Source: Octopus vulgaris (Eukaryota). Taken from it: a DNA stretch of 64,000 bases. Positions 5,932 to 53,337 of the stretch are shown piece by piece (within the stretch, counting starts at the first letter, position 1; every line of letters begins with the position of its first letter). A program made the translations under genes and the position numbers. The notes under the pieces were generated by a model. The model was not told the origin of the DNA. It saw nothing but the letters and a program-made list of their open reading frames with translations, and searched no databases. The stretch covers positions 65,720,001 through 65,784,000 of the forward strand of contig OX597815.1 in the NCBI GenBank assembly GCA_951406725.2. Direction: 5' to 3'.

Positions 5932-6190
5932 CGACGATGACGACGACGATGATGATGATGATGATGATGATGATCCTTTCTACTATAGGCAAAAGGTTTG
6001 AAATTTTGGCGAGAATGAGTGAGTCGATTACAACAATCCCAGTGATTAACTGATACTTATTTTGTCGACTTCGTAAGGATGAAAGGTAAAATCGAACACG
6101 GCGGGATTTAAACGCTTAACTAAAAGACGGATGAAATGCTGCGAGGCATTTTTCACGGCGTTCTAACGATTCTTCCAGCTCACCGCCTTA

Positions 6191-7922: not shown

Positions 7923-8339
7923 AGGCGGCAAGCTGGCAGAAACGTTAGCATGCCGGGCGAAATGCTTAACGGTATTTCGTCTGCCGTTACGTTCTGAGTT
8001 CAAATTCCGCAGAGGTCGACTTTACCTTTCATCCTTTCGGGGTCGATTAAATAAGTACCAGTTACGCACTGGGGTCGATATAATCAACTTAATCCGTTTG
8101 TCTGTCCTTGTTTGTTCTCTCTGTGTTTAGCTCTTTGTGGGTAGTAAAGAAATAGGTATTTCGTCTATCTTTATGTTCTGAGTTCAAATTCCGCCGAGGT
8201 CGACTTTGCCTTTCATCCTTTCGGGGTCGATTAAATAAGTACCAGTTACGCACTGGGGTCGATGTAATCGACTTAATCCCTTTGTCTGTCCTTGTTTGTC
8301 CCCTTTATGTTTAGTCCCTTGTGGGCTGTAAAGAAATAA
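7923..8339 (+). mobile_element. Family A SINE with an internally duplicated body
   Basis: GGCGGCAAGCTGGCAGAAACGTTAGC head; body GTTCTGAGTTCAAATTCCGC...GTAAAGAAATA present twice. Confidence 0.9.
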
Positions 8340-29240: not shown

Positions 29241-29282
<42 letters not shown>

Positions 29283-29287
<5 letters not shown>

Positions 29288-29941
29288 ACAAGAAATGGAA
29301 CAAGAACGTAACAAGCGACGATAAAACATCCGGACAGTTAGACGATAGAAAAAGGACAGGAAAAAACAAGGATGACTTATTTGGAGCTTTCTATCTTCAG
29401 TCGAGTTCCAGATTATCTCAGCAGTTTCGGCCGGTTACATTCGAGACTGCTCCACTCTGGCCGGCCCCAAGAAAATCTAAGCTAAGAGCACTAGGTTCCC
29501 GGGAAGAAAGCAAGCAGATGTTTACGGACAAATGGTGCACAATTACAAATAAAAATAACAGGTATCTTTCGACTAAGGACGAATTAAATTAAGCTGGCGT
29601 GTGTGGAAGTGAAGCCTTACGGCAAGGGCATAGCTGATGAGAGTCATAGGAAGGAATATAAGAGATGGTACACGGATGGTAGTTGAACCAAGAAAGAAAG
29701 GTCAGGCTTGGTGGAACACCGGTCACGTGGAAGGAGAGGAGAGTGGTAGGGGCAAAGGGATAAAAGAATTAGGAAGGGACGAGAGAGAAAAAGAAAAGAA
29801 AAGGGACAGAATGAGGTAAACGAGGAGGGAAAGTGAGAATGAAGGGAAAGCCAAGAAATGTGAGAGAGGGAAAGCGATAAAAGGAAAAATGGAAAGAACG
29901 AAGTGTGAAGGGACTAAAAGAAAGAGTAAGAGAGTCGTACA

Positions 29942-29944
<3 letters not shown>
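29283..29944 (-). mobile_element. Non-autonomous PLE-type element inserted in (TA)n
   Basis: (TA)n on both sides; a truncated second copy at 30285-30414; contains hammerhead segments. Confidence 0.65.
29383..29466 (-). ncRNA. Candidate rearranged, pseudoknotted hammerhead
   Basis: GGCCGG CCAGA gt GGAGCAGT-C-TCGA atgtaa CCGGCC-GAAA-CTGCT gagataa TCTGG aac TCGA-CTGAAGA ta GAAA GCTCC. Confidence 0.6.
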
Positions 29945-29994
<50 letters not shown>

Positions 29995-30041
29995 TGCATA
30001 CATATATATATATACATAGGAGATAGGGGTACGTTACGCCG

Positions 30042-30150
30042 ATCCGGTTCCGACTGAAGATTAGAGTCTTCGAGTGACCCGTCTGTTTTTTTGTGTCGTC
30101 TCTTTGTGTGTTTTTGCGTTCTTGTCCCACTTTGTAATTTATATTTTATA
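30042..30150 (+). mobile_element. Truncated copy of the 37321-37606 family terminus
   Basis: GATCCGGTTCCGACTGAAGATTAGAGTCTTCGAGTGACCCGTC...GCGTTCTTGTCCC matches 37508-37600. Confidence 0.7.
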
Positions 30151-30164
30151 TTTTATATTTGATT

Positions 30165-30239
<75 letters not shown>

Positions 30240-30284
30240 TTACATATAAGAGACCAAAAGTGTACTACGTCGCTACATGTATAT

Positions 30285-30414
30285 ATAAAAAAGAAATCAA
30301 AAAATTAACAAGAACGTAAAAGCCGACAACAAAATATCCGGACAGTTAGACGATAGAAAAAGGACAGGAAAAAACAAGGACGGGTCATTCAGAGCTTTCT
30401 ATCCTCAGTCGAGG
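30285..30414 (-). mobile_element. Truncated copy of the 29283 family terminus (core CTGAGGA)
   Basis: CCGGACAGTTAGACGATAGAAAAAGGACAGG is shared with the copy near 29330-29360. Confidence 0.75.
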
Positions 30415-30652: not shown

Positions 30653-31079
30653 CTCTTTGCATCCAACTTAATGTTGTATTCAACACTTTTGCGTTTCCGT
30701 ACTCAAACAGAAAAAAAGCTCTATATCCAATTCAACGTGATAGATTGCTTTATGTTCACTGGTTAAACGCATGTTGTATTTTCAACACCACCTGAGGTAT
30801 AGAATGGTCGCAGAAACAAACGTTCACCGCAGAAGGACAGTGTGCTAGTCACACATACCTCTTATTTATTTAGTATATTTGAGATTCTTTCTATACTTTT
30901 TATTTCTTATTTTTTACACTTACCCCGGGTAATTGATGAATGTTGCACAATAATGTATATTATTGTTCTTCGAACATTCTTAGTGAGTCTCATTATCAGG
31001 CAAATAAAAAAACATCACAGACACACACACATAAACACTACAGGCACATACGCACACGTATATTTAATATGTACATATT

Positions 31080-31486
31080 CTTTTCTACTCTAGGCACAAG
31101 GCCCGAAATTTTTGGGGAGATTGCCAGGACTTTTAGATTGACCACAGGATGCAAATTGTACATATTTTATCGACCCCGAAAGGATGAAATGCAAAGTCGA
31201 CCTCGGCGGAATTTGAACTCAGAACGTAAAAACAGACGAAATACTTATTTCTTTACTACCCACAAGGGTAGTACTTTACTACACAGAGAGGACAAACAAG
31301 GACAGACAAACGGATTAAGTCGATTATATCGACTCCAGTGCGTAACTGGTACTTATTTAATCGACCCCAAAAGGATGAAAGGCAAAGTCGACCTCGGCGG
31401 AATTGGAACTCAGAACGTAGCGACAGACGAAATACCGCTAAGCATTTCGCCCGGCATGCTAACGTTTTTGCCAGCTCGCCGCCTTT
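31080..31486 (-). mobile_element. Family A SINE with duplicated body
   Basis: Homology to 7923-8339. Confidence 0.88.
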
Positions 31487-37082: not shown

Positions 37083-37262
37083 CGGGAAGCTTTATGAAAA
37101 TAGACAAAAGACGAAGGCAGGTTTACGGAAATAAACAAAAGACGAAGGCAGGTGGAATACAAACAAACAATTGTATTAGTATGGCGCTCAGGAAATATAA
37201 ATAAAACAAGTCTTTAACGTTTCGAGCCTACGCTCTTCAACAGAAAGATACACAGAGAAAAA
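37081..37262 (-). mobile_element. PLE 3' terminus (same family as 53202) abutting (TA)n
   Basis: AACGGGAAGCTTTATGAAAAT...GGCGCTCAGGAA...CAGAAAGATACACAG is near-identical to 53202-53345. Confidence 0.8.
37211..37248 (-). ncRNA. Minimal type I hammerhead-like motif with CUGUUGA core
   Basis: TCTTT CTGTTGA A GAGC-GTAG-GCTC GAAAC GTT AAAGA. Confidence 0.6.
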
Positions 37263-37320
37263 ATATATTTATTTATTTATTTATTATGTATATATATATG
37301 CATATAGATGTATATATACG

Positions 37321-37606
37321 TTTTTGTCCTATTCTTACTATTATTGTTTTTTGTATTTATATTCGTGTGGCATCGTCCGTTTTTCTGTCCTTGTTTCGTA
37401 TACATTCGATCCTTTTTCCAAGAAATCTAATGCTCGTAGCTTAGTTTTTCCTTGGGGCTGGCCGGATCGGAGCGATCTCAAGATTAATCAGCCGAGGTTG
37501 CGAGGATGATCCGGATCTTGACTGAAGATTAGAAGCTTCGAATGACCCGTCCGTTTTGTGTGTCGTCTATTTGAGTGCTTTGCGTTCTTGTCTCATTTTG
37601 TATTTA
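37321..37606 (+). mobile_element. Non-autonomous PLE-type terminus ending in (TA)n
   Basis: Diverged homologue of the 29283 family. Confidence 0.65.
37456..37540 (+). ncRNA. Candidate rearranged hammerhead, covariant homologue of 29383-29466
   Basis: GGCTGG CCGGAT CGGAGCGAT-C-TCAAGAT taa TCAGCC-GAGG-TTGC gaggat GATCCGG ATCTTGA-CTGAAGA tta GAA GCTTCG. Confidence 0.55.
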
Positions 37607-37624
37607 TATATATATGCATACATG

Positions 37625-38298
37625 TTTTTCTACACTGGGCACAAGGCCCGAAATTTCGGAGGAGGGTGTCAGTCGATTAGATCGACTCCAGTATGCAACT
37701 GGTACATAATTTATCGACCCCGAAAGGATGAAAGGCAAAGTCGACCTCGGCAGAATTTGAACTCAGAAGGTAAAAACAGACGAAATGCCTATTTCTTTAC
37801 TACCCACAAGGACAGACAGACGGATTAAGTCGATAATATCGACCCCAGTGCGTAACTGGTACTTAATTTATCGACCCCGAAAGGATGAAAGCAAAGCCGA
37901 CCTCGGCGGAATTTGAACTCAGAACGTAACGGCAGACGAAATACCGCTAAGCATTTCGCCCGGCGTGCTGACGTTTCTGCCAGTTCGCCGCCTTCCTTAA
38001 AGAATGAAAGGCAAAAGTCGACTTCGGCGGAATTTGAACTCAGAACGTAGCCGCAGACGAAATACCCATTTCTTTACTGCCCACAAGGGGCTACACACAG
38101 AGGGGACAAACAAGGACAGACAAACGGATTAAGTCGATTATATCGACCCCAGTGCGTAAGTGGTCCTTAATTTATCAACCCCGAAAGGATGAAAGGCTAA
38201 GTCGACCTCGGCGGAATTTGAACTCAGAACGTAGCGGCAGACGAAATACTGTTAAGCATTTCGCCCGGCGTGCTAACGTTTCTGCCAGCTCGCCGCCT
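37625..38298 (-). mobile_element. Tandem, nested cluster of family A SINE units
   Basis: The core GAAAGGCAAAGTCGACCTCGGCGGAATTTGAACTCAGAA recurs four times. Confidence 0.9.
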
Positions 38299-52959: not shown

Positions 52960-53183
52960 CAATATAGGGTAGCAAAAAATTCAAGAAAAAATTCAAGAAA
53001 AATTTTCTGCAACCAGCGGTCAAGTGAGAAAATAGAAATAGTCACAGACTATATAATATATTCAACAAAATATTAAGGAAAGACCCTTACAGGTCGTTCG
53101 ACTCACTTGAAAAGAGCAGCCAAAACTCAAACCGCAAAAAGTGAGTCGAACGACCTGTAAGGGTCTTTCCTTAATATTTTGTT
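52957..53183. mobile_element. Short PLE-type terminus with a perfect 45-bp inverted repeat
   Basis: 53064-53108 is the exact reverse complement of 53139-53183; (TA)n on both sides. Confidence 0.7.
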
Positions 53184-53299: not shown

Positions 53300-53337
53300 T
53301 CTTTTACGTTTCGAGCCTACGCTCTTCAACAGAAAGA
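53300..53337 (-). ncRNA. Minimal type I hammerhead-like motif with CUGUUGA core
   Basis: TCTTT CTGTTGA A GAGC-GTAG-GCTC GAAAC GTA AAAGA. Confidence 0.62.

Follow-up and report, generated by a model that had tools for sequence, protein, structure and literature searches.

A candidate hammerhead ribozyme opened between A9 and G10.1 in a high-copy Penelope-like repeat of Octopus vulgaris

Non-circular permutations of the hammerhead are the closest described relatives of the motif analysed here. The passages of Eckert 2023 that deal with them (PMC10085705) place type SGC only in metatranscriptomes and type CSG in only two metagenomic sequences, report that SGC and CSG RNAs cleave in vitro, and assume that block C cannot be interrupted, i.e. 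that the chain is never broken between A9 and G10.1. According to the relevant section of PMC4209133, the hammerheads of Penelope elements consistently have a base bulged out between positions 9 and 10.1. Naiads are described as being without canonical hammerheads in the corresponding section of Craig 2021 (PMC8557442), which mentions eight “half-core” cases and gives no structure for them. Within the literature searched (subscription journals outside its scope), we found neither a hammerhead with an open A9-G10.1 link nor a description of permuted hammerheads in Naiads.

We analysed a 64,000-nucleotide stretch of the Octopus vulgaris genome (the window; assembly GCA_951406725.2, contig OX597815.1, forward-strand positions 65,720,001 to 65,784,000), in which a first-pass annotation had recognised two diverged copies of a rearranged hammerhead. 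The motifs it listed are present in both copies, at 37456-37540 on the + strand and at 29466-29382 on the - strand. We refer to the type of the 37456 copy as family A and to the older type of the 29383 copy as family B. Numbered from the first nucleotide of the window, the 37456 copy comprises the following parts:

37456..37461, + strand: stem II 5' strand GGCTGG, with G10.1 as its first base, moved to the 5' end of the motif; pairs with 37488-37493
37462..37468, + strand: clamp 5' strand CCGGATC (stem I-stem II interaction helix); pairs with 37508-37514
37468..37473, + strand: 5' strand CGGAGC of an optional distal helix, overlapping the clamp end and helix III; pairs with 37535-37540
37472..37477, + strand: block S, i.e. 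the helix III 16.x strand (GCGAT from 37472) with U16.1 at 37476 and C17 at 37477; register fixed by the hammerhead core
between 37477 and 37478, + strand: predicted cut, in the hammerhead-core register
37478..37483, + strand: stem I 1.x strand (TCAAGAT from 37478); pairs with 37516-37521
37488..37493, + strand: stem II 3' strand TCAGCC (C11.1 last), from the family alignment
37494..37501, + strand: block G, i.e. G12-A13-A14-A15.1 (GAGG at 37494) and the helix III 15.x strand (GTTGC at 37497)
37508..37514, + strand: clamp 3' strand GATCCGG, from the family alignment
37516..37529, + strand: stem I 2.x strand (ATCTTGA at 37515), CUGAAGA (37522-37528) and the U after A9
37535..37540, + strand: distal helix 3' strand GCTTCG (tail); its family-level change is one-sided only

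The strands thus follow one another as stem II 5' strand, clamp, block S with the cleavage site, block G with GAAA, clamp, and stem I joined to CUGANGA. As read from its predicted pairing, the motif is a circular permutation of the SGC/CSG connectivity, opened between A9 and G10.1. None of the known permutations (I, II, III, SGC, CSG and GCS) matches it, CUGANGA having no stem II strand within 1-2 nt. In the 37456 copy, the stem II strand does not come after CUGAAGA and its U; CUGANGA is preceded, at a distance of about 66 nt, by the stem II 5' strand. In all but one of the lineages compared here, the core end of stem II is closed by a G-C pair, though G10.1 is 60 nt or more away from A9. A second GAAA-like word, after CUGAAGA, was considered as the core and rejected; it is a linker that varies freely.

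Standard tools do not single out the motif. An Rfam scan returned no hammerhead or other ribozyme among its 129 matches at the window, which are low-complexity matches, and the nested minimum free energy (MFE) is unremarkable (z -1.27 and -1.17 for the motif strands of the two window copies). We attribute both results to the crossing helices of a multi-pseudoknot, which neither method handles. In the predicted nested MFE structure the partner of the stem II 5' strand is the tail, which speaks against the split-core fold, and the clamp and helix III are joined into one nested hairpin.

The motif belongs to an abundant repeat. Its copy number is at least 2,491, counted as exact matches to a 29-place pattern over the motif 3' half in the 2.8-Gb assembly, with 0 matches to the reversed pattern as a control; motif candidates at first look numbered 2,582. 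Units of about 795 nt occur in tandem, with spacings of 763-837 nt and one of 574, and a (TA)n or TA-type microsatellite stands at the 3' end in 29/29 copies. Long copies contain partial duplications upstream as well as truncated copies in inverted orientation. None of the 20 long A copies, which are arranged as tandem or inverted units, has an ORF, and no coding ORF is apparent in the listed output for the units. Families A and B therefore combine what is expected of a non-autonomous Penelope-like element, namely partial tandems, inverted 5'-truncated copies, microsatellite targets and no ORF, the first three being hallmarks of these elements in the passages of Craig 2021 that describe them (PMC8557442). 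Four fragments lie in the window:

37320..37615, + strand: family A fragment flanked by (TA)n tracts, 5'-truncated so that the final ~295 nt of the unit are left; identity of 94.6% to the 3' region of L108, a natural full unit
29261..29964, - strand: near-full family B unit, motif at 29466-29382 with GAAA intact; 77.7% to natural unit L040
30041..30157, + strand: second family A fragment, 5'-truncated inside the motif
30272..30413, - strand: second family B fragment, 5'-truncated inside the motif

The three A/B fragments at 29261-30413 alternate in orientation within 1.2 kb of microsatellites, a cluster that suggests repeated insertion into the same tract. Directly after the 37320 fragment, an abundant SINE-like repeat is inserted at 37605-37800; further copies lie near 5977, 6310, 8000-8280, 31059-31436, 37828-38247 and 59892. 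A Penelope-like end of another kind, bearing a motif that resembles a minimal type I hammerhead, is found at 37211-37247 (-) and 53301-53336 (-); the motif reads CUGUUGA instead of CUGANGA at both places, and the variant may therefore be family-wide. Beside a (TA)n tract at 53069-53178 stands a near-perfect inverted repeat with arms of ~43 bp, possibly a small foldback element.

Core conservation was counted in 127 distinct ungapped full copies (87 A-like, 40 B-like), with gapped and truncated copies dropped; this set was seeded on part of CUGANGA, whose conservation is therefore partly built in. GAAA is present in 79/87 A-like and 31/40 B-like copies. GAGG occurs in a single A-like copy of the 87, the 37456 copy itself, and the 29 best other genome matches comprise 28 with GAAA and one with GAAG. 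The first-pass annotation had raised the question whether GAGG is a change private to this copy, which is borne out, and had reckoned that a consensus without GAAA at both positions would leave a structured RNA other than a hammerhead; since the family keeps GAAA at the first position, that objection falls away. GAGG changes both A14 and A15.1 (A14G, A15.1G), which are consensus hammerhead core positions in the part of PMC3088659 that defines the core. Because both are altered, the 37456 copy is likely a mutated, inactive hammerhead, in keeping with the earlier suspicion.

At the family level, the pairs U16.1-A15.1 and G10.1-C11.1 are kept together with CUGANGA. U16.1 itself is retained in 126/127 full copies; at H17 the sets examined contain C, A or U but no G; and N7 is free, with A, G, U and C all occurring among the 127. 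The full set of core positions (C3 U4 G5 A6 N7 G8 A9, G12 A13 A14, A15.1-U16.1 and H17) is in place family-wide, though not in the 37456 copy. The predicted cleavage-site triplet is AUC in family A, GUC in family B and GUA in a further family, C, described below, so that the annotated change from GUC to AUC holds, as does the retention of CUGAAGA at 37522. A subfamily (L063, L080, L154, L156, L161 and L175) has A at position 17, giving an AUA site, and an altered stem I; some of its copies carry an extra base in both helix III strands.

Helices I, II and III stand in register around this core, with 94-97% of cells paired and double changes in all three. The 7-bp clamp, which sits at the position of the stem I-stem II interaction of types SGC and CSG, is the weakest helix (86% paired), with an A-C mismatch at one pair in 29/87 A-like copies. 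Between families A and B, the commonest letters differ at 24/97 columns, 15 in helices and nine in linkers or N7. The 15 helix differences resolve into six double changes and three G-U/Watson-Crick swaps, and 0 pairs are broken. Paired changes in four helices, the central argument of the first-pass annotation, are thus found at the family level as well (helix II one, clamp two, helix III one, helix I two), and stem I shows further double changes in subfamilies. When 24 changes were placed at random, all 27 pairs stayed intact in 3.5e-5 of 200,000 trials, and no trial among these 200,000 combined zero broken pairs with at least six double changes. The A/B divergence is essentially one event.

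Some details of the earlier comparison require adjustment. The change of helix II from GGCCGG/CCGGCC to GGCTGG/TCAGCC stands as given, with its one double change. The clamp is compensated by two double changes, but the family B clamp measures 7 bp and not the length of CCAGA/TCTGG. In helix III (AGCAGT/ACTGCT to GCGAT/GTTGC) the double change is sound, whereas the G of GTTGC is private to the copy, the family reading ATTGC. Helix I (TCGA/TCGA to TCAAGAT/ATCTTGA) likewise keeps two double changes, but the seventh pair is private (T-T in 80/87) and the family B helix has 6 bp; in family B, both helix I and the clamp are longer than in the decayed 29383 copy. The distal pairing (GGAGC/GCTCC to CGGAGC/GCTTCG) is present in the copy, but its only change at the family level is a one-sided G-U/G-C exchange, and this helix competes with the clamp and helix III for end nucleotides.

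A structural alignment was built from the two window copies and 48 copies taken from the first pattern matches on contig 1, giving 48 distinct rows. In these rows 93.1% of cells pair and 11/27 pairs show double changes, the structure having been derived from the aligned sequences themselves and the tail columns fixed by the search pattern. Shuffled alignments equalled the real one in 0/500 cases on four of five measures and in 50/500 on the fifth, and slid registers pair only 16-50% of cells.

The same layout recurs outside families A and B. We searched the Craig 2021 supplement for CUGANGA (60/62, 25/25, 30/43 and 23/23 places listed, the Naiad file covered); the search misses words that run across line breaks, contexts were read by eye and unscored, and names not printed beside a passage were assigned by file order. 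Within the supplement passages so covered, at least 11 of 54 Naiad consensus records carry the split layout: one in the ctenophore section, one in the Clytia section, three from Acropora, two from Morbakka, one from a crustacean, and, in the cephalopod section, Naiad_Obim, Naiad_Ovul and one more. Their helix sequences are unrelated in the passages printed there; stem II, for example, reads GGCTCC/GGAGCC in coral, GACGCC/GGCGTC in the crustacean and GACACC/GGTGTC in Octopus. Stem I of the ctenophore-section record, as printed, is only 2 bp long, and the record that precedes Naiad_Plae comes close to the A/B layout, with the distal helix included. Six nematode Naiad consensi (file S5, parts 13-16), read by eye, show complete type CSG with an interaction helix of 8-11 bp. 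In the record before Chlamys-8_cSch and in arthropod Naiads (parts 17-19; CUGACGA), the printed sequence has CUGANGA with flanking helices and no GAAA in a parsable position; these are possibly further variants. Among 30 of 105 places listed for U3-type cores (UUGANGA) in the Naiad supplement, none was informative.

In the same genome, the octopus Naiad end, which we term family C, gave 703 pattern matches. Its helix sequences differ from those of A and B, the registers are the same, and core and helices are kept in 28 copies. The family C 3' end matches Naiad_Obim and Naiad_Ovul in the portion of Craig file S5 compared. Its motif lies in sense downstream of reverse transcriptase (RT) remnants in 28/83 RT loci (RVT_1 E 2e-4, below cut-off), as against 0/83 with A or B, and family C therefore appears tied to a Naiad-type ORF. 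By architecture only, we infer that A and B are non-autonomous Naiad derivatives. An autonomous A/B partner was sought near the 83 RT loci, where neither A nor B sequence occurs. A pair spaced by 3.7 kb was rejected as a partner because it represents a duplication of local sequence around (TA)n; no match was returned for a short pattern taken from the beginning of the Naiad_Ovul ORF, and Pfam gave nothing significant on five short Penelope-like element (PLE) fragments.

We thus observe a repeat structure, a conserved core, a divergence that preserves pairs and a layout that recurs at Naiad 3' ends. On this basis we propose, at a probability of roughly 0.75, that the locus is a decayed high-copy Penelope-like repeat whose intact copies would fold into a self-cleaving, non-circular hammerhead without the A9-G10.1 link. 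Because intact copies keep every part of the hammerhead and the same layout ends Naiads of several phyla, the split arrangement is likely the self-cleaving RNA that Naiads were reported to be without. The clamp would hold together the far ends of the stem II 5' strand and of the stem I/CUGANGA strand, and so replace the missing link. The predicted cut falls after H17 (C17 in the register of the 37456 type); cleavage there would serve to trim tandem transcripts of the element, the role proposed for hammerheads of other Penelope-like elements, and would set a preferred 5' end for reverse transcription. The 5' ends of the inserted copies give an indirect sign of such cutting. Among 98 copies anchored on the motif 3' half, from the first 100 matches listed, the 5' end of 29 falls 24-44 nt upstream of the anchor, with the predicted cut at 42. 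The truncation rate in this stretch, an interval chosen after inspection of the data, is 5.2-fold that of the next 106 nt upstream (p 2e-8) and drops just past the predicted cut site. The peak is centred 5-18 nt 3' of that site, and the stretch 36-44 alone is not significant (p 0.07). Given the post hoc interval, the offset and this last value, the pile-up may possibly reflect polymerase stalling on the structure or TA microhomology. It is quite probable that Naiads across animal phyla carry non-circular hammerheads, CSG in nematodes and a cleaving seventh topology in ctenophores, cnidarians, crustaceans and cephalopods, the latter possibly acting only as docked tandem copies.

Whether one copy would suffice is the most serious alternative. 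Rough helix geometry suggests that the clamp and helix III, joined by short linkers on both strands, strain the monomer fold, and Eckert raises a similar concern for some SGC RNAs in the part of PMC10085705 that discusses their geometry. Because of this strain, docking into a second copy is a real, if rather less likely, alternative: the arms above one clamp (the stem II 5' strand, and stem I with CUGANGA) would fit into the hairpin loop of another, the chemistry would be the same, and only tandem transcripts would be cut. Such action is a sub-case of the reading proposed above and competes only with action as a monomer. It fits the single nested hairpin that the clamp and helix III form in the MFE structure, the occurrence of the elements as partial tandems, and the dimeric action proposed for metazoan Penelope hammerheads in the relevant section of PMC4209133; in two Naiad records, as printed, the clamp and helix III are nearly continuous (linkers of 0-1 and 0-3 nt), which by rough geometry would make a monomer hard to form. 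Nevertheless, single constructs of SGC and CSG RNAs, whose links are similar, do cleave in the experiments described in PMC10085705, and in families A and B a monomer folded side by side could use the distal helix to span the gap.

An unlikely reading is that the conserved structure, though derived from a hammerhead, has lost the ability to cut and now acts, for the Naiad protein, as a signal for recognition or pausing. The broken A9-G10.1 link would be in line with such a role, as would the 2-bp stem I of the ctenophore-section consensus. Insertion ends also bear on it, since most inserts read through an intact motif and truncations peak within the structure and not exactly at the cut. However, all catalytic residues, the UH rule and a free N7 appear to be kept across phyla, as would be expected of catalysis, and the nematode relatives in the supplement sections compared carry a type already shown to cleave.

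It is very doubtful that stem II of family A is instead made by the tail, with GGCU following a 5-nt insert, which would turn the motif into type SGC with an insertion and leave the 5' strand incidental. A 4-bp GGCU/AGCC helix is possible in most A-like copies (closing pair in 70/87), yet the closing pair exists in only 6/40 B-like copies, this tail helix is less stable than the 5' strand helix (-4.2 vs -8.3 kcal/mol), the pairing is absent from family C and the Naiad records, all of which have the 5' strand, and this strand co-varies. Chance pairing in a repeat, which would agree with the unremarkable folding energy, the lack of an Rfam match and a loose descriptor that gives two unrelated matches in 528 kb and 0-1 per shuffle, is effectively refuted by the pairing statistics (27 pairs, shuffles, random placement) and by cross-lineage covariation, the layout recurring in unrelated Naiad sequences.

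If the self-cleaving split hammerhead is real, a further topology joins the six considered possible, and hammerheads can do without the backbone link between A9 and G10.1. For the non-circular permutations, it would be the first case with a known host element, one present in animal genomes in thousands of copies. Naiads would no longer seem to thrive without a hammerhead, and the ribozyme would be near-general in Penelope-like elements. CSG, SGC and the split form can be converted into one another by circular permutation, and a tandem-repeat element therefore offers a route between them.

As regards the host element, families A and B resemble Naiads, as far as these are described in the sections of PMC8557442 consulted for comparison, in their (TA)n targets, partial tandems and inverted truncated copies, and differ from them in having no ORF and no link to any of the 83 RT loci. 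They share with non-LTR retrozymes a non-coding tandem unit with a hammerhead and a proposed derivation from Penelope-like elements; the parts of that preprint compared here (bioRxiv 10.64898/2026.07.22.740005) mention no cephalopod or mollusc and no permuted ribozyme, and Naiad appears there only as a PLE class in coral. As in the minimal type I Penelope hammerheads, in the account of them given in PMC4209133, the motif lies on the sense strand in a terminal repeat near the 3' end, in high copy and with a base after A9. Those hammerheads are of circular type with a vestigial helix III, whereas here we find a full helix III, a clamp and a non-circular order. Finally, the motif shares with types SGC and CSG, in the descriptions of PMC10085705, the cyclic order S-G-C, a short stem I-stem II link, a far-end helix and the core. 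It differs from both in that the chain is opened inside block C and the stem II and clamp strands stand at the 5' end, and, in contrast to the SGC and CSG sequences of those descriptions, which come without a repeat in a known organism, it is present in thousands of genomic copies in a retrotransposon.
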